Source of the DNA: Acidimicrobiia bacterium | GTDB taxonomy: Bacteria > Actinomycetota > Acidimicrobiia > Spongiisociales > UBA5794 | Direction: 5' to 3' | Assembly: GCA_024762335.1 (NCBI GenBank) | Contig: JANTHO010000002.1 | Coordinates: 5,766 to 69,765, forward strand | Length of the DNA: 64,000 bases | Shown: one piece after another, positions 29,724 through 40,156 of the stretch | How positions within the stretch are numbered: the first letter of the stretch is position 1 | Layout: each line of letters starts with the position of its first letter | Position numbers and translations under genes: made by a program | Notes under the pieces: generated by a model | The model's database searches: none | Told to the model about the DNA's origin: nothing | Seen by the model: only the letters and a program-made list of their open reading frames with translations

Positions 29724-30728
29724 TCATCCGCCGATGTAGGACATCTCCACTTTCGGGAGGCCGATCGACACTCCGGTCCGATCCTCGCTGTACCGATCGG
29801 TTCTGGATTCCCACACATTCGTGATGAGTTCGGTGATTTCGGCGTCGGTGGCGCCGTCTCGCAGCGGGCCGCGCAGGTCGGTGCCGTCGACTCCGAACAG
29901 GCACGTGTAGATCGAGCCGTCGGCGGAGAGCCGCAGGCGTGTGCACTCGCCGCAGAACGGTTGCGATACGGATGAGATCACACCGACCTCGCCGCCACCG
30001 TCCCGGTAGCGCCACCGATTGACGACCTCACCCGGGTAGTTCGCTTCGACCGGTTCGAGAGGCCACTCGGCGCCGATCGTCTCCAGGATCTCGCCGGCGG
30101 TGATCACATCGGTCATCTGCCATCCGTTGGACGACCCGACGTCCATGTACTCGATGAACCGGACGATGTGCCCGGTACCGCGGAAGGCTCGTGCCACATC
30201 GAGGATCGAACCCTCGTTGAGTCCGCGCCGCACGACCGTGTTGATCTTGATCGGTGTGAGACCGGCTTCGTTCGCGGCTTCGATCCCTTCGAGCACCCGC
30301 GCAACGGGGAAATCGACATCGGCTGCCAATCGGAACAGGGCGTCGTCGATCGCGTCCAGACTCACGGTGATCCGGTCGAGACCCGCAGCAGCCAGCGCAG
30401 GGGCGTGGCGGGCGAGGATGCTCCCGTTCGTCGTCAGAGCGATGTCTCCGATCCCTTCGATCCCGGCGATCATCTCGACGAGGCTCGGAAGGTCGTGCCG
30501 CAGCAACGGTTCGCCGCCTGTGAGCCGAACCTTCTCGACCCCGAGATCGGCGAAGATGCCGACGAGCCGCTCGATCTCCTCGAACGTCAGGATCTCCTCG
30601 CGGGGGAGGAACGCATGGTCCCGCCCGTATGCGTCGCGCGGCATGCAATACGTGCATCGGAAGTTGCAGCGGTCCGTCACGGACACGCGGAGGTCACGCA
30701 GTGGTCGTCCGAGGGCGTCGATCAGCAT
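29724..30728 (-). CDS. moaA: GTP 3',8-cyclase (molybdenum cofactor biosynthesis protein A)
   Basis: Radical SAM motif CNFRCTYCMP and the C-terminal Cys cluster CGECTRLRLSADG. Full-length MoaA homology. Confidence 0.9.
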   Translation of the reverse strand: MLIDALGRPLRDLRVSVTDRCNFRCTYCMPRDAYGRDHAFLPREEILTFEEIERLVGIFADLGVEKVRLTGGEPLLRHDLPSLVEMIAGIEGIGDIALTTNGSILARHAPALAAAGLDRITVSLDAIDDALFRLAADVDFPVARVLEGIEAANEAGLTPIKINTVVRRGLNEGSILDVARAFRGTGHIVRFIEYMDVGSSNGWQMTDVITAGEILETIGAEWPLEPVEANYPGEVVNRWRYRDGGGEVGVISSVSQPFCGECTRLRLSADGSIYTCLFGVDGTDLRGPLRDGATDAEITELITNVWESRTDRYSEDRTGVSIGLPKVEMSYIGG

Positions 30729-30767: not shown

Positions 30768-31883
30768 TCAGCGGGCGAGGTCGAGGAACTCGTTCCTGGT
30801 TCGCGGATCGGTAATGAACGTTCCGCGCATGGCGCTCGTCACCATGGCGCTCTCCTGTTTCTGTACGCCGCGCATCATCATGCACAGATGCCGTCCCTGC
30901 ATGGTGACCGCGACGCCGTGCGGATCGAGAATGTCGATGAGCGCATCGGCGACCTGGTTCGTGAGCCGCTCCTGGACCTGGAGCCGTCGCGCGAACACGT
31001 CGACGATGCGGGCGACCTTCGAGAGACCGATGATCTTGCCCTTCGGGAGATAGGCAACGGCCGCTTTGCCGAAGAAGGGCAGCATGTGGTGTTCGCACAT
31101 CGAGTAGAACTCGATGTCTTTGACGAGCACCATCTCGTCTGCTCCTTCGGCATCGAACACGGCGTCGTTGACGACCTCCTCGAGTGACGTGGAGTAGCCG
31201 CTGGTCAGGAAGTCCATCGCCTTGGCCACACGAAGCGGTGTGCGGACGAGCCCTTCGCGATCGGGATCCTCGCCGATCTCGACAAGTTGCTCGCGCACGA
31301 GTCCTTCAAACCTGGGGGCGTAGACGTCGACGACGTCGTCGAAGTCCTCCGGCGCCCGGGGTGTGTACGGGGAGTTGAGGTGAATCGCCATGACGGGTCG
31401 AACCTCTCCCCGGCCGATTTGTTCCGCGATCTCCGAGACGGTCCGCCCGTCTGCGGGATGCACCCAGTCCGGTGCGACCTCCGCGATCGGGATCGCAACG
31501 TGTGGTTCGGTGATCGCCGCAGGGTCGGGAATCCGCCACCCATCGAGATCGAATTCACTGTCGCCGTAGTAGGCGATATCGAGATCGATCCTCCGCGGCG
31601 CATCCGGATCGTCGCCCCGTTCGCGCCCGAGGACGGCTTCGATTCCTCGCAGCACTGCTCGGAGTCCTTTCGGATCCAGTTCCGTGCAGACGAGAGCCGC
31701 CGCGTTGAAGAAGTCCGGGGCTCCCGCCGGACCGCCGACCGAAGGGCTCTCGTAGAAGCCACTCACGTTCTCCACCCGGACGTGCTCTGCTCTTCGGAGC
31801 ATCCGGATCGCCTCGGGGAGGTTCCGCTCCCGCTCGATGTTGGACCCGAGCACGATGATCGCCCGGGCTGTTCCTTCACGCAT
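30768..31883 (-). CDS. bifunctional 6-hydroxymethyl-7,8-dihydropterin pyrophosphokinase (FolK) / GTP cyclohydrolase I (FolE) fusion
   Basis: N-terminal HPPK ([22 protein letters not shown]…). C-terminal GTP cyclohydrolase I (…[22 protein letters not shown]…[14 protein letters not shown]…). Start at the ATG at 31883, preceded by GAGGGGAG; it overlaps the folB stop by 8 nt. Confidence 0.85.
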
Positions 31884-32247
31884 CTTCTTCTCCCCTCGTT
31901 CTGTGAATCGTGATCCCCACGGATCGGGCATGCCGGAGCGCTCCCGGCTTCTCGACCGTCATCTCGACAGCAGCGACACGATCGTCGGATGCGAAGCACA
32001 TCTCGGCGAGTTCCGCGACAAGACGTTCGACGAGCATCGGCTCTCCCTCTTCGATGTGGGCGATGAGGCGCTTCGTGATCGTCCGGTAGTTGACGGCGTC
32101 GCCGATGTCGTCGCTGGCAGCAGCCGGTCGGGTGTCGGCCCACAGCGTCGCGTTGACGAGGATGTCCTGCCGGTTGATCCGTTCCTCCGGGTTGATCCCG
32201 AGAATCCCCGACACAACGAGATCCCGAATGTGTATCTCATCCAACAT
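31876..32247 (-). CDS. folB: dihydroneopterin aldolase
   Basis: Start at the ATG at 32247 ([23 protein letters not shown]…), typical FolB. The 285-aa track ORF is an upstream over-extension through the tandem repeat. Confidence 0.85.
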
Positions 32248-32248
32248 C

Positions 32249-32318
32249 TTGCCCCTTGCCTCTTGCCTCTTGCCTCTTGAATCTTGACTCTTGATTCTTG
32301 ACTCTTGACTCTTGCTTC
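32249..32318. repeat. heptanucleotide tandem repeat, about 10 units of TTGNCTC (TTGCCTC x3, TTGAATC, TTGACTC, TTGATTC, TTGACTC x2, TTGCTTC)
   Basis: Read directly. The repeat fills the whole interval between the SDR stop (32319) and the folB ATG (32247). On the mRNA strand it reads AGAGTCA…AGAGGCA AGAGGCA AGGGGCAAG-ATG. Confidence 0.8.
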
Positions 32319-33080
32319 TCACACCAGATGCCCTCCGCCGTCGACCCGGACGATCTCGCCGGTGATGAAGTCGTTCTCGAGGAGGGCGAGCGCCGCGGCA
32401 ACCACCGGATCGGTCCCGCCGACCCGTCCGAGCGGTAGATCCTCTGCGAGCCTCAGTGCGTAGTCGTCGTCCTCCGAGCCCGGCGGGAGGATGACGCCGA
32501 GAGCAACGGCGTTGACCCGGATCCTCGGGGCGAGTTGCAGCGCTGCGGTCCTCGTGAAGGTGTCGATGCCGCCTTTCGCGACGATGTAGCTGAAGTGCTC
32601 TCGATACGGCGCATGAGTACGGACGTCGGTGATGTTGACGACCGACCCGTCCAGGTCGTCCGGAAGCGCATCGGCAAACGCTTGGGTAGCGAACACGGGA
32701 GCGCCCAACGTCAGATCCAGCGTCGCTCTCCATGCATCGAGGTCCACGTTCCGGATCGTGTCCGACGGGAACCCGGATGCACTGTTTACGAGGATCGATG
32801 GGGATCCAAGCCGTTCGGTCGCCATCTTGACGAGTTCGGAGGCCGTCGACGGGTCGGAGAGATCGACCGAACCGACCGCGGCTCGCACACCGAGACGCCG
32901 CGCCATCTCCGCCGTCTCCCGGGCCGGCCCGTCCGAGCGGTTGTAGTGGATGAACACGTCGACGCCGGCCCGTGCCAGGCCGAGTGCAAGCGCTCGGCCG
33001 ACGCGAATGCCGCCGCCGGTGATGATTCCTGTTCGTCCGCGAAGCTCCATACCGGTGAGCGTAACCCGCGGAAGGCCCAT
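32319..33080 (-). CDS. SDR family NAD(P)-dependent oxidoreductase (possibly pteridine-related, given the folate-gene context)
   Basis: Rossmann motif TGIITGGGIRVGRALA and catalytic YxxxK (…YIVAKGG…). Alternative start at 33050. Confidence 0.75.
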   Translation of the reverse strand: MGLPRVTLTGMELRGRTGIITGGGIRVGRALALGLARAGVDVFIHYNRSDGPARETAEMARRLGVRAAVGSVDLSDPSTASELVKMATERLGSPSILVNSASGFPSDTIRNVDLDAWRATLDLTLGAPVFATQAFADALPDDLDGSVVNITDVRTHAPYREHFSYIVAKGGIDTFTRTAALQLAPRIRVNAVALGVILPPGSEDDDYALRLAEDLPLGRVGGTDPVVAAALALLENDFITGEIVRVDGGGHLV

Positions 33081-33130
33081 GTCCTTCCCAGTTCCCTCTC
33101 CGTTCCCGCAGGAGCGCCTATCCTGCTGAC

Positions 33131-33719
33131 CGTGAGCAAGGAAGACCCGAAACCAGGCCGCTGGATCCTCCCCGCCATCGTGGTGGCGCTGATCGGATTC
33201 ACCTATCTGTTCGTCAACGCTCTTCCCCCGGCCGAGATCCCGGTCGGCACCACGACCACGATCGCGGCGCAGAGCACGACGACGACCGTCCCGGAGCTGG
33301 AGACGACCACGACGACTCTTCCGCCGGAGATCGCCGCGTTCCTGAGACTCGTCGATGACTACGCCGCCACGGCGAATCTCGTCGCGGACGATGTCGACAG
33401 CACGAATACGGCGTGGGAGGAGCGGGCGGACGGGGCTCCATCGTTCAACGACACGCTGGCCGCATTCGAGGCGGCTCAGGCGGAAGCCCAGACCCTGAGC
33501 GACAACGTCGAGGGAACGAACCCACCCGATGCATACGCGGCCGTGTGGCCGGACGCGGTGGCAGCCGCAGCCGATCTCCCGACCGGAGTGAACGCGGTGA
33601 TCGAAGGCCTCCGCGCTCCCGACGACGGAACGGCGAGGCGAGAAGCCGTCGCAGCCTACGAGGAACTCACCGCGACGTTCCTCGCGGCCCTCGACGAAGT
33701 CAAAGCCGCAACCCCGTAG
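33131..33719 (+). CDS. membrane-anchored hypothetical protein with Thr-rich linker
   Basis: GTG start at 33131; the start is uncertain. N-terminal TM helix WILPAIVVALIGFTYLFV, then TTTTIAAQSTTTTVPELETTTTTLPP, then an Ala-rich helical region. Confidence 0.45.
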
Positions 33720-33737
33720 ACCGGGACCGGGTTCCGG

Positions 33738-34742
33738 CTACCCGTTCTCCAGGGCGCTGCAGATCGTGTCGGTCATCAGGCGGGCCACGACGTACGGGTC
33801 GGCGTTGGCGTTCGGGCGCCGGTCCTCGAGGTAGCCCTTCTTCTCCTTGGCCGTCTGCCACGGGATCCGGACCGACGCGCCGCGGTTCGACACGCCGTAC
33901 GAGTACTCGGTCCACGGCGCCGTCTCGTGCAGGCCGGTCAGCCGCCGCTGGATCCCTGCGCCGTAGTTCGCGATGTGCTCATCGGCTTTCTCCCCGAGCG
34001 CCTCGCAGGCCGCGATGATCGGGTCGTAGGATTCCCGCATCGCCTTCGTCGAGAAATTCGTGTGCATGCCGGCACCGTTCCAGTCGCCTTCGACCGGCTT
34101 TGGATTGAGGTGAGCGGAGATGTCGTAGTTCTCGGCGATGCGATAGAGCAGCCAGCGAGCCATCCACAGGTGATCACCGACGGATACCGGGTCGAGTGGG
34201 CCGATCTGGAACTCCCACTGACCGATCATTACCTCCGCATTGGTCCCGGAAATCATCAGCCCGGCCTCGATGCAGGCGGCCGTGTGATCCTCGACGACGT
34301 CGCGGCCCCAGATCTCGTCCGATCCGACACCGCAGTAGTACCCGCCCTGTGGCGCCGGATACCCGCCGATCGGCCAACCGTGGGGGCGTCCGTCCTTGTA
34401 GAACGTGTACTCCTGTTCGAGTCCGAACCACGGCTCCTGATCTGCATACCGTTCGTAGGCGGCCACGCAAGCGGCCCGGTGGTTCGACGGATGCGGCTCC
34501 ATGTCCACGTTCAGCACTTCACAAAGGACGAGGACGTCGTCACCTCCGCGGATCGGGTCGGGTCGCACGAATACCGGCCGCAGCACGCAGTCCGATTCGG
34601 TCCCCGGAGCCTGCTCGGTGCTCGATCCGTCGAACCCCCACAGGGGTGGCTCTTCACCGCTGGGAATGACCTTCGTCTTCGATCGGAGCTTGGCCGTCGG
34701 CTTCTGCCCATCGATCCATATGTATTCGGCCCGATAGGGCAT
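33738..34742 (-). CDS. glnII: glutamine synthetase type II (eukaryote-like GSII)
   Basis: Start at the ATG at 34742 with a GGAGGA RBS: MPYRAEYIWIDGQKPTAKLRSKTK… is a classic GSII N-terminus. Motifs …WPIGGYPAPQGGYYCGVG… and …NGAGMHTNFST…. Confidence 0.85.
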   Translation of the reverse strand: MPYRAEYIWIDGQKPTAKLRSKTKVIPSGEEPPLWGFDGSSTEQAPGTESDCVLRPVFVRPDPIRGGDDVLVLCEVLNVDMEPHPSNHRAACVAAYERYADQEPWFGLEQEYTFYKDGRPHGWPIGGYPAPQGGYYCGVGSDEIWGRDVVEDHTAACIEAGLMISGTNAEVMIGQWEFQIGPLDPVSVGDHLWMARWLLYRIAENYDISAHLNPKPVEGDWNGAGMHTNFSTKAMRESYDPIIAACEALGEKADEHIANYGAGIQRRLTGLHETAPWTEYSYGVSNRGASVRIPWQTAKEKKGYLEDRRPNANADPYVVARLMTDTICSALENG

Positions 34743-34839
34743 GGTTCCTCCACAGTTGGGTTCGGCGCGCGGAATCTTGCCACACCCCGGATCGCTTCGC
34801 ACGCTATCGGCGACCGGGAAGTGTGAGCCTGTCGGCGGT

Positions 34840-36354
34840 TCAGACGAATTCGATCCCCTGGGCGAGCGGAAGTTCGCCGGACCAGTTGATCGTCACGGTC
34901 TGGCGACGCATGTACGCCTTCCACGCGTCGGAGCCGGATTCACGGCCGCCGCCGGTTTCCTTCTCGCCGCCGAACGCCCCGCCGATCTCGGCGCCCGACG
35001 GGCCGATGTTGACGTTGGCGATCCCGCAGTCTGAACCCTCCGGTCCGAGGAACTGCTCGGATGCACTCACCGAGTCGGTGAAGATGGATGACGAAAGACC
35101 CTGGGTTACGCCGTTGTTGATCTTGATCGCCTCTTCGACCGAGTCGACTTCGATCACGTAGAGGATCGGAGCGAACGTCTCGATCTGGAGGATGGGAGCG
35201 TCGGATGGCATCTTGATGATCGTCGGCTCAACGAAGTGGCCGGGTCCGTCGATGACGCCGCCTCCGTGGAGGAGTTCGCCACCCTGCTCCTGTGCGATGC
35301 CGACCGCGGCGGAGAAGTTGGCGACCGCGATCTCGTCGATGAGCGGCCCCATGAGATTCGCATCGTCGAGCGGATCACCGATCTGGACGGTGCGATAGGC
35401 GGAGACGAGCCGGCGGCTCAGCTCTTCCGACACACCCTTCTGGACGATGAGGCGACGCAGCGAGGTGCACCGCTGGCCCGCCGTTCCGACGGCAGCGAAG
35501 ACGGCCGCTCTCGTAGCGAGATCGAGATCGGCATCGTCCATGACGATCATGGCGTTGTTCCCGCCGAGTTCGAGGAGCGACCGTCCGAGGCGCTTGGCGA
35601 CGGCCACACCGACCTTCTCGCCCATACCGCACGAACCGGTCGCGGAGATCAGCGGAACACGCCGGTCGTTGATCATGACGTCACCAACCTCGGCTCCCGA
35701 ACCCACTGCGAGGCTGAAGACACCCTCGAACCCGGAGCCTTCCATGACCCGTTCGGCCAGCTTCGTCGTTGCCACAGCGGTGAGCGGCGTTTTCGAAGAC
35801 GGCTTCCAGATGAGCGTGTCTCCGGCGACGGCGGCGATCATGGCGTTCCACGCCCAGACGGCGACGGGGAAGTTGAATGATGTGATGATCCCGACCGGTC
35901 CGAGCGGCTGCCACTGTTCGTACATGCGGTGGCGCGGGCGTTCCGACGCGATCGTGAGACCGTAGAGCTGCCGGGAGAGGCCCACGGCAAAGTCGGTGAT
36001 GTCGATCATCTCCTGAACTTCGCCCTCACCTTCAGCTTTGATCTTCCCCATTTCGAGCGCGACGAGCGCGCCGAGCGGTTCCTGATACTCCCGGAGCATG
36101 TCGCCGATGTCGCGTACGAACTTGCCTCGCTCGGGCGCCGGCAGCATGCGCCACTCGGTGAACGTGTCGGTTGCCGTGGCAACAACCTTCTCGTAGTCGT
36201 CCCCGTCGGCCCGTTTGACGGAACCGATGACCTCGCCGGTCGACGGGTTCTCCACTTCGAGCAGCGTCCCGCCGGTCTCGAGCCATCCGCCGGCGTAGGC
36301 GCCGGCGTTGACGTCGTTCAGATCGAGAGCGGAGAAGATGGCGTCACGGTTCAC
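34840..36354 (-). CDS. aldehyde dehydrogenase family 7 (alpha-aminoadipic semialdehyde / piperideine-6-carboxylate dehydrogenase, antiquitin-like)
   Basis: ALDH catalytic region …ELGGNNAMIVMDDADLD… and FGGEKETGGGRESGSDAWK, which is typical of ALDH7. Confidence 0.8.
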   Translation of the reverse strand: MNRDAIFSALDLNDVNAGAYAGGWLETGGTLLEVENPSTGEVIGSVKRADGDDYEKVVATATDTFTEWRMLPAPERGKFVRDIGDMLREYQEPLGALVALEMGKIKAEGEGEVQEMIDITDFAVGLSRQLYGLTIASERPRHRMYEQWQPLGPVGIITSFNFPVAVWAWNAMIAAVAGDTLIWKPSSKTPLTAVATTKLAERVMEGSGFEGVFSLAVGSGAEVGDVMINDRRVPLISATGSCGMGEKVGVAVAKRLGRSLLELGGNNAMIVMDDADLDLATRAAVFAAVGTAGQRCTSLRRLIVQKGVSEELSRRLVSAYRTVQIGDPLDDANLMGPLIDEIAVANFSAAVGIAQEQGGELLHGGGVIDGPGHFVEPTIIKMPSDAPILQIETFAPILYVIEVDSVEEAIKINNGVTQGLSSSIFTDSVSASEQFLGPEGSDCGIANVNIGPSGAEIGGAFGGEKETGGGRESGSDAWKAYMRRQTVTINWSGELPLAQGIEFV

Positions 36355-36396
36355 GTTCGGACCTCCTGGAATGGATTGTTGACGGTCGTTGGGGTG

Positions 36397-36777
36397 CTAG
36401 CGGGCGGCAATCGTTTCGATCTCGACGAGGAATCCGCCGGGGAGGGCCGAGACCTCGACCGTCGAACGCGCCGGTTTCGCGTCGCCGACATATTCGCCGT
36501 ACACGGCGTTCACCGCGGCGAAGTCGTCCATGTTGGTGACGAAGATCGTCGTCTTCACGATGTCTGCGTATCCGAGGCCGACGTCACCGAGAACCGCACC
36601 GATGTTGCGCATGATCTGATCGGTCTGCTCGGCAGCACCGCCTTCCACGACGGCGCCGTCCGCTGGGTTGATGGCGATCATCCCCGAGACGAAGACCAGT
36701 CCGTGCGCTTCGGTGACGATGCTGTAGGGACCGAGCGGTTTCGGCCCGCTCGGAGCATCGTGAATCTGTTTCGGCAT
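36397..36777 (-). CDS. ridA: RidA family protein (YjgF/reactive-intermediate deaminase)
   Basis: 126 aa: …PLGPYSIVTEAHGLVFVSGMIAINPADG… and the C-terminal ARSTVEVSALPGGFLVEIE. Confidence 0.8.
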   Translation of the reverse strand: MPKQIHDAPSGPKPLGPYSIVTEAHGLVFVSGMIAINPADGAVVEGGAAEQTDQIMRNIGAVLGDVGLGYADIVKTTIFVTNMDDFAAVNAVYGEYVGDAKPARSTVEVSALPGGFLVEIETIAAR

Positions 36778-36819
36778 GGGACCTCCCGGATCGTTCGGGA
36801 GGCAGTCTACGAGGGTTCG

Positions 36820-37149
36820 TCAGCCGCGTTTTCCGCAGGTGCAGGAGTGGCCGCTCTCGTTCGGGTTGTCGATCGCAAAGCCCGCGCCTGCGAGACCATC
36901 GTCCCGGAAGTCGATCGTTGACCCCATCAGCCGATCGACGCTCCGTTCGTCGATCACGACGTTGAACGCACCGGTCTCCACGACTGTGTCCGTCACAGAC
37001 GCACCGGTATCGAAGTGCAGGTCGTAGCGGAACCCGGAGCATCCTCCCGGCTTGGCACCGAGCCTGAGAACGAGAGTCTCATCCCCTTCGCCATCGAGCA
37101 GTTCCCGCACCTTGTTGATTGCTGAGTCGGTAAGCATCACCGGCGTCAT
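36820..37149 (-). CDS. HesB/IscA/ErpA family iron-sulfur cluster insertion protein
   Basis: Start at the ATG at 37149 after GGAGGAGG. C-terminal SGHSCTCG motif and GGCSGFRY. Confidence 0.8.
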   Translation of the reverse strand: MTPVMLTDSAINKVRELLDGEGDETLVLRLGAKPGGCSGFRYDLHFDTGASVTDTVVETGAFNVVIDERSVDRLMGSTIDFRDDGLAGAGFAIDNPNESGHSCTCGKRG

Positions 37150-37239
37150 TGCACATCGCCTCCTCCGCGCGTCGCACTGCAACTCTAACTCCTATCGCCG
37201 TGTTGGGAATAGGGAATCTCATTCGATAGCATCGGCCGG

Positions 37240-38376
37240 GTGACGAAACGAGCAGACATTGAGGCCGCTCTACGCGGAGTGATCGACCCCGAACTGAACG
37301 CGGACATCGTCGAACTCGGCATGGTGAGCGACATCAAGGTGGACGGTGCTCACGTCTCGATCGGCGTCGCCCTCACCGTGGCGGCGTGCCCGATGCGAAA
37401 CCAGATCGAGTCCGATGTGGTCCGGAAGGTCGCCGCGATCCCCGGGATCGATGACGTGACCGTCGACGTCACCGCGATGAACGCCGAACAACGGTCGGAA
37501 CTCATGAGCAAGGTTCGCCTGCGTGCCCGTGAGAACGCGACGCCGACGATGATCAGTCCACAGACCCGGGTCATCGCCGTCTCGAGTGGCAAGGGCGGCG
37601 TCGGCAAGTCGTCGCTCAGCGTCAATCTGGCGTTGGCCATCTCGGCGCTTGGACACCGAACGGGACTCCTCGATGCCGACATCTGGGGATTCTCGGTTCC
37701 GAGAATGCTCGCTTCGACAGATGCCCGTCTCGAAGCGGGCGAGAACCGCAAGATCCAGCCGCTCCAGGCGACCGGTCTGGAGATCGTCTCGACCGGGTTG
37801 CTCGTCGACGACGAGGACACGGCGCTCATGTGGCGGGGACTGATGCTCTCGAAAGCGCTCGAACAGTTCCTCACCGACGTGGCGTGGAGTCCGAATCTCG
37901 GATACCTCATCATCGACATGCCCCCCGGAACCGGTGACGTGCAGATGGCTCTGTCGCGCATGCTCCCGCAGGCCGAAATGGTCGTTGTGACCACGCCGCA
38001 GCGCGCCGCACAGAAGGTCGCGGCACGGGTCGCAGACATGGCCCGCAGGTCGCACATGCCGGTCGTCGGCGTCGTCGAGAACATGTCCGGTTTCACCACA
38101 GAGGACGGTCGCCACTACGACCTGTTCGGATCGGGAGGCGGCCTCGAACTGGCCGATCAGCTCGGCGTTCCCCTTCTCGGCCGGGTGCCCCTCGACCCCG
38201 GTGTCGTCAACGGCGGCGACGAGGGGCGGCCCGTCGTCACCGAGGATCCGAACGGCCCCGCCGGAACTGAGATCCGATCGATCGCCGCCCGTCTCACGGA
38301 ACTGATCCCCCCCGCCGCCGAAGACACCTGCACCGCCCGCATCGCCGTCCTGGCCGAACAACTCGAACACCTGTAG
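37240..38376 (+). CDS. Mrp/ApbC family Fe-S cluster carrier ATPase
   Basis: N-terminal DUF59-like region. P-loop AVSSGKGGVGKSSLSVNLA and CPMR motif. GTG start at 37240. Confidence 0.85.
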   Translation: MTKRADIEAALRGVIDPELNADIVELGMVSDIKVDGAHVSIGVALTVAACPMRNQIESDVVRKVAAIPGIDDVTVDVTAMNAEQRSELMSKVRLRARENATPTMISPQTRVIAVSSGKGGVGKSSLSVNLALAISALGHRTGLLDADIWGFSVPRMLASTDARLEAGENRKIQPLQATGLEIVSTGLLVDDEDTALMWRGLMLSKALEQFLTDVAWSPNLGYLIIDMPPGTGDVQMALSRMLPQAEMVVVTTPQRAAQKVAARVADMARRSHMPVVGVVENMSGFTTEDGRHYDLFGSGGGLELADQLGVPLLGRVPLDPGVVNGGDEGRPVVTEDPNGPAGTEIRSIAARLTELIPPAAEDTCTARIAVLAEQLEHL

Positions 38377-38379
38377 CCC

Positions 38380-38830
38380 CACCTGCAATCTCTTCGACTG
38401 CAACGCTTCACAGAAAAGGTGAGGGCGTGGACGGCGGCTTCGCGCACTCTCCCCCGGCCCGTAGGGCTGGGGGAGATGCCCGGAGGGCAGAGGGGGATGC
38501 GTGGAGCCCACGGATCGCAAGGGTGAGGTGATCCCGCTACTGAAGGCCCGTGTGTATCCGTGGAACCGCGCCCGGGCTGATCTCGGGATGGCACCTCCCC
38601 CCCACCCAGTTCGAGCAGAGCTCGAACGCGTCCCCCCATCGCTTCGCTCTGGTGGGACGTGAACTGGGGGTCGAACGCTCTTGTCGTCGAGAGTCCGTGG
38701 ATTCAGGCGCAGTGGGGGAGAATGGGAACCCGTTCGGTGCCTCAGAGAAACCACCGGTTCAGGCGAAGCGATGAAGATTGGAAAAGAGCGCTCTCACGAT
38801 CCCGGGCTCTTGGCTCTTGGCTCTTGACTC
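38380..38830. repeat. non-coding repeat island A, homologous and inverted relative to island B (47444-48112); ends in 3.5 units of the CTCTTGR heptamer
   Basis: The six-frame track shows overlapping ORFs in all frames; the strongest apparent protein-level similarity between the two islands, the PWIQAQWGR peptide motif, traces to a single shared DNA module. Shared modules: 38408-38430 matches the reverse complement of 48001-48025. The hairpin TCTCCCCC…GGGGGAGA followed by GATGCCCG(C/G)AGGGCAGAGGGGG is at 38448-38492 and at 47615-47666. CCGTGGATTCAGGCGCAGTGGGGGAGAATGG…GGTGCCTCAGAGAAACC is at 38693-38760 and at 47541-47600 (reverse complement). Heptamers GGCTCTT GGCTCTT GGCTCTT GACTCTT are at 38797-38828. 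Confidence 0.7.
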
Positions 38831-40156
38831 TTATCTACAGAGTTTGTCGACCATGGGGTAGGGGTTCGCCCAGTCGCCGCCGCCGGGCTTCCAGCCGAGA
38901 TGCAGATGGGGGAGCCAGGACGGAGCGTTGCCTGTCGTGCCGACCGTCCCGATCATGTCCCCGGCCGAGACTCGCTGTCCTCCTGCGAGCCCGTCGGCCC
39001 AGGAATCCATGTGGGCGTAGTAGTAGATGTCACCCGAGTTGCCCTGTAGGTACACCGAGATCCCACCGAGGGTGCTGTTCGACAGCCGGTAGATGCGTCC
39101 CGTCTCCATCGCGACGAGTGGCGTTCCTCGCGACGCCGACATGTCGACGCCTTTGTGTGTCCTGCCACCGGATCGGGGCGCTCCCCACGTATCGGAGAAC
39201 GAAACGGCACCGTCGACGGGACAGACCCGTCCGGCCGTTGAGACGGGAGGGGTCGTCGTGGTCGTCGTTGGTGCCACAGTGGTCGTGGTGGATGACGTGC
39301 TCGTCGTCGTCTCTTCGTCGGACGGCGGGGCGGTTGTCGTGGTCGGAGCCATCGTCGTCGATGTCGTGGTAGTCGTCGTGGAAGATGTCGTGGTTGTGGT
39401 TGGAGCAGCGGTCGTGGTCGTGGAGACAGTTGCCTTCGCAATCGTCGTGGTCGTCGACGTAGCCGCCACGGCTGCGGCAGCAGCGGCTGCAGCGGCGGCC
39501 TCCTCCCTCTTTCGCTCCGCCTCGAGTTTACGCTGTCGTTGCTCTTCGGCGAGGCGCCGGCGCTCGGCTTCCTGCCGCTCCCAGGTGGCCTGCATCTCCC
39601 GATATTCGGCGTTCGCAGCGTCGAGGTCGGTAAGGAGTTGAGCCGCGAGCCCCTCGATCTCGGTTACGAGTTCACGCTGTCGCGACAGTGCAGCGTCGAG
39701 GGTCTCAACCTGCTCGCGATACTCAGTCTCGACGGCCATCCATTCATCCACGATCTTGCGATCGTGGTCGCTTGCGGCCTCGAGATACGTGCCCCGAACA
39801 GGAATGTCGATGAAAGCGTTCGCTCCGAGCACCGCAGAGACGGCACCGTCGGAACCGGCGGTCATATAGAGCTCACGAACGACATCCTGAGCCGTCAGGC
39901 GAAGCACGGCGAGCCGTTGCTCGGTCTCGGTGACCCGAGTGGCGAGACCGTGAAGGCTCTCGCGAATCTGAATCTCCTCAGCGACCGCCGCTTCGTATTG
40001 CGCATCCGTTGCTTCGAGGCTCGCAGAGATCTCGGCGTTGCGTTGGCGCGCAGTTTCCAGATCCGCCTGGGTGACCTCGCGTTCTTCGACGGCGAACGCA
40101 GGCGCTGCCAAACCGAGGATCAGAACAAGAATGAGGGCGATTCGCATATCGATCAT
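38831..40156 (-). CDS. M23 family metallopeptidase with N-terminal coiled-coil and Thr/Ala-rich linker (secreted)
   Basis: Signal peptide MIDMRIALILVLILGLAAPAFA. Long coiled-coil region, then a poly-Thr linker. C-terminal M23 motifs HKGVDMSA…GNSGD…HLHLG. Confidence 0.85.
   Translation of the reverse strand: MIDMRIALILVLILGLAAPAFAVEEREVTQADLETARQRNAEISASLEATDAQYEAAVAEEIQIRESLHGLATRVTETEQRLAVLRLTAQDVVRELYMTAGSDGAVSAVLGANAFIDIPVRGTYLEAASDHDRKIVDEWMAVETEYREQVETLDAALSRQRELVTEIEGLAAQLLTDLDAANAEYREMQATWERQEAERRRLAEEQRQRKLEAERKREEAAAAAAAAAAVAATSTTTTIAKATVSTTTTAAPTTTTTSSTTTTTTSTTMAPTTTTAPPSDEETTTSTSSTTTTVAPTTTTTTPPVSTAGRVCPVDGAVSFSDTWGAPRSGGRTHKGVDMSASRGTPLVAMETGRIYRLSNSTLGGISVYLQGNSGDIYYYAHMDSWADGLAGGQRVSAGDMIGTVGTTGNAPSWLPHLHLGWKPGGGDWANPYPMVDKLCR

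Follow-up and report, generated by a model that had tools for sequence, protein, structure and literature searches.

A heptanucleotide repeat between an SDR gene and folB in Acidimicrobiia probably grew from a translationally coupled stop/start overlap

MIRU elements are built of units tens of bases long, about 40-100 bp, and their tandem copies vary in number between strains (VNTR). A MIRU is an inserted repeat with an ORF that is coupled to the neighbouring gene, and it has little effect on expression (PMC12548453). NTGA is the commonest translational coupling motif, and there are short ORFs that exist solely to deliver ribosomes to the next start (PMC12548453). Heptanucleotide repeats are the most abundant class of longer simple-sequence repeats (SSRs) in many bacteria (PMC4679880), and polymerase slippage has been proposed as the origin of bacterial heptamer repeats (PMC4679880, PMC4692102). 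Unit number is known to matter in Haemophilus influenzae, where a change in the count of heptamers at the hmw genes alters expression (PMC12721329, PMC2651432).

The repeat described here lies at the junction between an SDR gene and folB in the window, the whole 64,000-nucleotide stretch of Acidimicrobiia DNA that was analysed. It falls within a known class, the bacterial heptanucleotide SSRs, and the twist is that its evolution is gated by translational coupling. Like the cyanobacterial STRR, the GGGAATC-type repeats of Xanthomonas and Nostoc and the TAACTGA repeats of Beggiatoaceae, it is a tandem 7-nt repeat of a kind that is overwhelmingly intergenic, often adjoins start or stop codons, sometimes forms inverted pairs, varies in length and sequence between close relatives and makes up the dominant longer SSR class (PMC4679880, PMC4692102). 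Those repeats are described as untranslated and one or a few of their units recur genome-wide, whereas the folB units vary by locus and lineage and lie in an apparently translated path with a conserved frame. The folB array may also be regarded as analogous to a MIRU with 7-nt units. Both are actinobacterial repeats between operon cistrons with an ORF coupled at the -4 (NTGA) spacing (PMC12548453), and the window shows GTGA and an in-frame fusion between co-oriented cistrons. Unlike the MIRU, whose conserved sequence forms a dispersed and presumably mobile family, the folB array has a 7-nt unit and no conserved sequence, its units differ between loci and lineages, and it apparently arose in place from the junction. 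As in NTGA-coupling ORFs in general, the candidate start overlaps the upstream stop and its Shine-Dalgarno (SD) sequence lies within the 3' end of the gene before it; unlike the usual coupling ORF, the one at folB is a simple-sequence repeat, and may be fused, single or multiple.

In the window folB is an internal cistron of a minus-strand operon, and the array sits inside that operon at a stop/start overlap. Pfam and NCBIfam identified folB, of the dihydroneopterin aldolase family, at 31876..32247 (123 aa from the ATG). The cistron upstream of the junction, at 32319..33080, encodes an SDR closest to pteridine-reductase-type SDRs and below the NCBIfam cut-offs. A gene joining HPPK (folK) to GTP cyclohydrolase I (folE) occupies 30768..31883 (Pfam, NCBIfam); this fusion is an uncommon architecture. 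The co-oriented cluster ends with a moaA-like radical SAM gene at 29724..30728 (Pfam), separated from folK/folE by a spacer of only 39 nt. According to gene calls on the identical contig L116, the folB stop and the folK+folE start overlap by 8 nt (31876-31883), which is the -8 coupling spacing, so that the entire SDR-folB-folK/E string looks translationally coupled from its sequence.

Direct reading, Tandem Repeats Finder (TRF) and a pattern count all identified ten tandem heptamers at 32249..32318, read in the minus-strand sense of the operon. The SDR stop and the annotated folB ATG, which are minus-strand codons, stand 71 nt apart, and the heptamers fill this gap exactly, as had been reported in a preliminary description of this DNA. 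On the plus strand the units are, in order, TTGCCCC, TTGCCTC (three times), TTGAATC, TTGACTC, TTGATTC, TTGACTC (twice) and TTGCTTC. The consensus is TTGNNTC, with two variable positions, and replaces the TTGNCTC first given for the repeat. In the mRNA sense the first half reads UGA-GAAGCAA GAGUCAA GAGUCAA GAAUCAA GAGUCAA and the second half GAUUCAA GAGGCAA GAGGCAA GAGGCAA GGGGCAA-G-AUG. TRF delimited the repeat at 32247-32319 with period 7, 10.4 copies, 86% matches and a score of 83, bounds that reach into both flanking codons, the stop and the start. An alternative period of 21 scored higher, at 97, which fits growth by in-frame triplets of units. A two-unit pattern matched 12 times in the window against 1.74 expected, a count reached by none of 100 shuffles, and the short head-to-tail units are thus repeated beyond chance. 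Two independent Logan assemblies from other sequencing runs (L116 and L117) contain an identical array, with 0 mismatches over 6 and 11 kb, indicating that the array is not an assembly artefact.

The TGA stop of the SDR gene lies at 32319..32321 on the minus strand, and its A together with the next G forms the conserved A|G unit boundary. Overlapping this stop as GTGA is a candidate GTG start at 32320..32322 (minus strand), at the -4 coupling spacing. A Shine-Dalgarno-like hexamer, GGAGGG (32331..32336, minus strand), is placed 8 nt upstream of the GTG and is encoded by Gly codons of the conserved SDR C-terminus, DGGGHLV. From the GTG the frame is open through to folB; the whole array is read in frame as 25 extra codons, and the product is 148 aa if begun at GTG 32322. 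The ATG annotated as the folB start, at 32245..32247 on the minus strand, is the choice of the gene caller and belongs to the last repeat unit, CAAGATG. It has an SD-like sequence of its own in the window, with three GAGGCAA units and GGGGCAAG directly upstream, and the SD-like GAGG/GGGG units that had been noted before this ATG are indeed present. Together with the comparison of relatives given below, these features indicate that the array is probably traversed by ribosomes in the window, where the GTG may serve as the start. Because folB is an internal cistron and the putative GTGA start reads the array into folB, the array is, judged by its sequence, not the 5' leader that it was initially taken to be.

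The explanation that we favour, and regard as probable, is that the array is a heptanucleotide SSR that arose from a coupled stop/start overlap, is traversed by ribosomes, is probably without sequence-specific function and is constrained to the folB frame. The array would have grown from a translationally coupled NTGA|G overlap between the pterin-reductase-like SDR gene and folB, and would be transcribed within the operon and crossed by ribosomes. Ribosomes ending the SDR at UGA could restart at the overlapping GUG, with GGAGGG 8 nt upstream, and would go on to translate the ten units into a hydrophilic, disordered tail of 25 codons joined to FolB, which would be functionally neutral as a tail. 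The AUG at 32247 would be a mutated last unit following GAGG/GGGG and could act as a second, independent start. The repeat would expand, contract and be replaced quickly, presumably by slippage and probably by recombination, and selection would retain only those versions whose ribosome path ends in the folB frame. Three kinds of path would be permitted: extension of folB in frame, one mini-ORF with a UGA overlapping the AUG of folB, or several mini-ORFs in a chain.

The same junction was compared in 80 folB loci from genomes, mostly Acidimicrobiia MAGs with some Chloroflexota, and in 35 loci from metagenomes; the metagenome scan yielded no relative above 90% FolB identity. A heptamer array is present at the SDR-folB junction of about 25 relatives. 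All of these arrays begin at the SDR stop, where the preceding base is A, G or T and an overlapping start (NTGA) results. The units are lineage-specific: GCTACCA, GTCGCCA, GACACAA, GACGTGA, GATATGA and GCCGCGA were found, with GAGTCAA in the window and in L118. Among 123 loci, the pattern of three GAGNCAA units is confined to the copies from the window strain itself and to L118. Copy number at the junction ranges from 1 to 10 across relatives. More distant relatives (L033, L071 and L073) have a plain GTGA or ATGA overlap with no array, and this direct overlap is likely to be the ancestral state. In other relatives folB has an apparent promoter of its own. A conserved TAnnnT element (for example GCTACCGTTCC) is placed 6-10 nt upstream of the folB ATG, with no Shine-Dalgarno sequence, in more distant relatives including L021, L032, L036, L051, L063, L076, L078, L080 and others; its sequence and position suggest a putative -10 box, from which these distant lineages would express folB as a leaderless mRNA.

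Of 23 independent configurations, 20 have a chain of NTGA overlaps leading from the SDR stop into the folB frame, where 5.6 would be expected (P ~3e-10, an optimistic value because the configurations are phylogenetically related and not fully independent). For the null model each spacer was shuffled and its length modulo 3 randomised, and a relay was counted as successful when the chain reached the folB frame no later than the conserved N-terminus. The relay takes one step, as an in-frame extension, in the window and in L118, L002, L003, L016/L043, L017, L024, L026, L037 and L053. It takes two steps, through a mini-ORF with its TGA overlapping the ATG or GTG of folB, in the L004/7/8/9 group and in L011, L014, L015, L019, L025, L081 and L086, and at least 8 distinct configurations have a mini-ORF of this kind. 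Mini-ORFs of the form ATGA...ATGA occur in L004, L007, L008, L009, L014, L015, L019, L025, L081, L086 and L123. Three steps, with NTGA inside the units, were found in L010 and L030, where every unit has its own NTGA and coupling survived most simulated changes in unit number. The strict chain is broken in L001, L005 and L012, which depend on a strong SD and ATG of their own, showing that coupling is not obligatory. All natural alleles seen in consensus assemblies keep the relay except these three.

The closest array-bearing relative is L118, with 90% FolB identity. Its junction consists of ATGA followed by seven units, GAGTCAA four times and then GAGCCAA, GAACCAA and GAGCCAA, so that the arrays of L118 and the window differ by 21 nt, exactly 3 units (7 versus 10). 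The codon of L118 that matches the window folB ATG is AGG (CAAGAGG versus CAAGATG), and the sole in-frame folB start is the ATG that overlaps the SDR stop. An in-frame start is likewise found only at the SDR-stop overlap in L026, L043, L016, L002, L017, L024, L037 and L053, and since these lineages have no other in-frame start the array must be coding in them. The preliminary description had dismissed the translation of ORF 31876-32733 as probably spurious and had named translation of the upstream extension as evidence against its reading. That dismissal is upheld only upstream of 32322; from the GTG onward, the relay (20 of 23) and the L118 junction are comparative evidence that points to just such a translated extension.

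An alternative is that the array is an untranslated intercistronic spacer, a tunable ribosome-binding region or contingency locus with initiation only at AUG 32247 through GAGG/GGGG, in which slippage alters spacing or SD dosage or toggles folB expression. We consider this unlikely, although for the window itself, with an ATG of its own, it has some plausibility: the GAGGCAA units and GGGGCAAG right before the ATG, the choice of that ATG by the gene caller and an unstructured region that favours initiation are all as it would predict. The loss of the ATG from L118, whose array is made of the same units, argues against it, and a relay kept in frame in 20 of 23 configurations would not be expected of such a spacer. 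The units of most relatives, such as GCTACCA, GTCGCCA and GACACAA, are not SD-like. Unit number does differ among relatives, as had been suggested (10 in the window and 7 in L118, with L119 and L120 being 3 units apart at another junction). The array is nevertheless identical in 3 consensus assemblies of the window strain, and four assemblies of one sister species are without length variation at the junction.

Heptamer SSRs upstream of the hmw genes of H. influenzae tune expression, and the (ATCTTTC)n repeats of hmw1A and hmw2A resemble the folB array in having at least about 10 units, in lying upstream of a coding sequence and in being co-transcribed with it (PMC12721329, PMC2651432). Unlike the folB array, the hmw repeat follows a promoter within a true 5'-UTR, at a distance of ~70-140 nt from its ATG, forms with a G-rich arm a long hairpin that is cut by RNase III, and controls a surface adhesin. 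The folB array has no partner arm, structure or promoter, and no hmw-type hairpin with a complementary arm was found at it; its position is internal to an operon and its target is a housekeeping folate gene. None of folB, folK/folE and moaA is a surface, restriction-modification or niche-adaptive gene, all being housekeeping genes of cofactor synthesis.

A unit length of 7, which is not a multiple of 3, gives the array the geometry of a contingency locus, in that slippage shifts the frame, and this too would suit an untranslated, tunable spacer. When slips were simulated in the window, gain or loss of 1 or 2 units broke the frame from GTG to folB, and gain or loss of 3 units (21 nt) kept it. 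With one unit fewer or two units more, ribosomes started at the GTG entered folB out of frame for 286 nt, and three different translational outcomes were obtained in all. Phase variation, which had been suggested for this locus, is thus feasible in principle; against it, no out-of-frame variants of one strain were seen among consensus assemblies, and the target is a housekeeping gene.

The repeat-encoded tail is predicted to be coil (pLDDT < 50), and the FolB fold begins at residue 28. Tail residues are hydrophilic in all lineages with tails, and the tail sequences are unrelated across lineages (RSKSQES, SRQSPVA, RYKTQDT and SYELRAT). It could be proposed that the encoded peptide is itself functional, as a variable N-terminal tail in FolB assembly, turnover or localisation, or as a leader mini-peptide in relatives. 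Most lineages have the array either in frame or as a defined mini-ORF, the tails are all hydrophilic, and the length of a 61-nt mini-ORF cassette is kept in L004, L007, L008, L009 and L123. This proposal is very unlikely to be correct, as the sequences are not conserved, the tail is predicted to be disordered and is absent from many FolB proteins with identical cores, and the repeat sequence is fused to FolB in some lineages and forms a separate mini-ORF in others.

Turnover of the junction was apparent from close relatives. Among L119-L122 and L123, the SDR genes are 99.2-99.9% identical and the folK/folE genes 99.7-100% identical, and the junction alleles are unrelated. The first allele in this group is ATGA followed by GTCGCCA four times and GACG, read in frame; the second is ATGA, then GCTGTGA, GCTGCGA, GCTGCCA and GCGGTCA, a further 30 nt and another ATGA, and its mini-ORF is homologous to the 61-nt cassette of L004, L007, L008 and L009. 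Both alleles maintain the relay. The folKE-moaA arrays of L120 have exactly 3 units more than those of L119 with folKE 100% identical, and the paired arrays between folK/folE and moaA in L123 belong to a different unit family from those of L119 and L120. One protein cluster formed at 90% identity contains identical or near-identical FolB cores with different N-terminal junctions, and in a weakly resolved FolB tree (~116 residues) the unit families are intermixed. Compared across these sequences, the repeat region evolves much more rapidly than the flanking genes, through changes in copy number and, it would seem, cassette replacement as well.

Unit positions G1, R4, C5 and A7 are 84-90% conserved across lineages and positions 2-3 vary freely. 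T is found in only 3% of units at position 6, where it would create TAG, and is mostly avoided at position 5. Descent from ATGA|G, together with avoidance of TAG, TAA and TGA, can explain the conservation at G1, R4, C5 and A7. Units free of stop codons (12 of 14, against 0.82 by chance) were not significantly enriched and were not used as evidence of translation.

TRAP binds repeats of (G/U)AG. The spacing of the HutP target is UAG-N4, or 7 nt, and GAG recurs every 7 nt in 7 of the 10 window units. The array therefore has the look of a platform for a ring-shaped or multimeric RNA-binding regulator of the TRAP/HutP type, through which a folate or pterin signal might control folB translation; a position just before a start codon would suit translational repression, and conserved positions are available at G1, R4, C5 and A7. 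Regular NAG triplets in unstructured RNA beside a start codon are indeed shared with TRAP and HutP targets. Unlike in those targets, the triplet is not conserved, positions 2-3 being free, and there is no terminator or antiterminator, so that the likeness is in appearance only. No cognate TRAP/HutP-type protein was identified among the operon neighbours scanned. The conserved positions are explained by ATGA|G descent and stop avoidance, copy number falls as low as 1, and unrelated units (GTCGCCA versus GCTGNNA) occupy the junction in strains whose flanks are 99-100% identical. With units that differ even among near-identical strains, a site for an oligomeric protein of this type was rejected as most improbable.

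Searches for structure and regulatory signals were negative. The RNA of the folB array folded no better than shuffled sequences (z -1.17) and was unpaired in the centroid, and no terminator, antiterminator or other structure was found at the array. Rfam covariance models run over the window brought only tRNAs to the gathering score, with no THF riboswitch or other family, and a known RNA family was rejected for the array. A search of both strands in 31500-39500 gave no promoter-like site, and a promoter within the array was rejected on this ground. It is hardly credible that the array acts at the DNA level, as a promoter (TTGAC, which had been read as a -35-like hexamer, occurs in 4 plus-strand units), a set of protein-binding iterons or a hotspot of recombination with no link to translation (junction alleles do appear to have been swapped as cassettes between near-identical strains), given that no promoter-like site was detected, that a plus-strand promoter would transcribe antisense to the SDR gene, that relatives' units lack TTGAC and that the 7-bp period does not keep phase with the turns of the DNA helix.

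A census of arrays covered 820 kb from 83 related loci with GC >= 58%. Period 7 was found in 69 of 109 arrays of at least 3 copies and in 52 of 63 intergenic arrays. Heptamer arrays had been supposed to be rare in high-GC genomes; in this lineage they are the dominant class of intergenic array. TRF on the first 80 loci and the window returned 115 rows with period 7, 103 with period 9, 48 with period 6 and 40 with period 8. Most intergenic arrays occupy the space from a stop to the following co-oriented start (29) or the space separating two convergent stops (12), and 23 of 58 stop-adjacent array edges are within 5 nt of the stop codon. The 52 other heptamer arrays of these genomes share no common motif. 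A single generating motif such as GAGTC was considered and rejected: several arrays contain GAGTC or AGTC, and most do not.

Within the window, TRF and the pattern count also located a second array at 38805..38832 on the minus strand (T-AAGAGTC AAGAGCC AAGAGCC AAGAGCC). It belongs to the same unit family as the folB array, 6.5 kb away, and its start lies within the TAA that ends an M23 peptidase gene (38831-40156, minus strand); no ORF lies downstream of the array. Its RNA is less structured than shuffles (z +2.2), and on the values for the two arrays an RNA hairpin or terminator was rejected. Between the M23 gene and a convergent Mrp/ApbC gene (37240-38376, plus strand) there is a gap of ~430 nt (38377-38804) with no convincing ORF; a 21-nt tandem repeat is located within it at 38457-38500, and a Logan contig from the same strain breaks in the gap. 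An Rfam scan of 38300-38900 at E<=1 gave no match, and the gap could be an undescribed RNA or plain spacer. The M23 gene also encodes, at 39251-39500, a long low-complexity linker rich in Thr, Ser and Ala, in which TRF reported periods of 6, 9 and 12.

A further arrangement was noted in relatives, including Chloroflexota, where spacers of 60-175 nt after folK/folE (and moaA) consist of two adjacent heptamer arrays. Examples are found in L119 (4020-4173), L120 (4020-4194), L123 (3996-4151, with a different unit family in the left arm), L010 (2344-2424 and 3460-3564), L026 (7479-7583), L031 (7609-7681), L035 (4338-4396), L054 (7008-7064) and L061 (334-399). The paired arrays are often in opposite orientation and could pair as long hairpins.

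A bolder interpretation is that the SDR-folB junction and other operon junctions of Acidimicrobiia and Chloroflexota act as hypermutable translational switches that produce population heterogeneity in folate and pterin synthesis, which we regard as improbable. If it were true, the gain or loss of a unit would, since 7 equals 1 modulo 3, shift ribosomes from one to another of three paths: a FolB fusion, an end beside the folB start, or a far out-of-frame run into folB. The resulting heterogeneity would be heritable and reversible, and some lineages would have evolved slip-proof units, each containing an NTGA. Selection for turnover, as opposed to neutral decay, would then account for the unrelated alleles of strains otherwise 99-100% identical.

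Around essentially the same core, the lengths in public gene calls of the FolB clade (L118-L123 and protein hits P0001-P0136) span 121 to 153 aa, as callers leave the repeat out, take it in, or run on into the SDR gene in a different frame (for example MGGISYELPAASYQPP...). The NTGA relay offers a rule for calling FolB starts in this clade, where current calls are inconsistent. The junction also provides a natural example of a fast-evolving repeat tolerated in an essential operon only when ribosomes stay on track, in a group of uncultured marine and sediment Acidimicrobiia whose intergenic tandem repeats are dominated by heptamers. If unit number varies within populations, the junction would represent an unusual form of translational switching on a housekeeping cofactor pathway.
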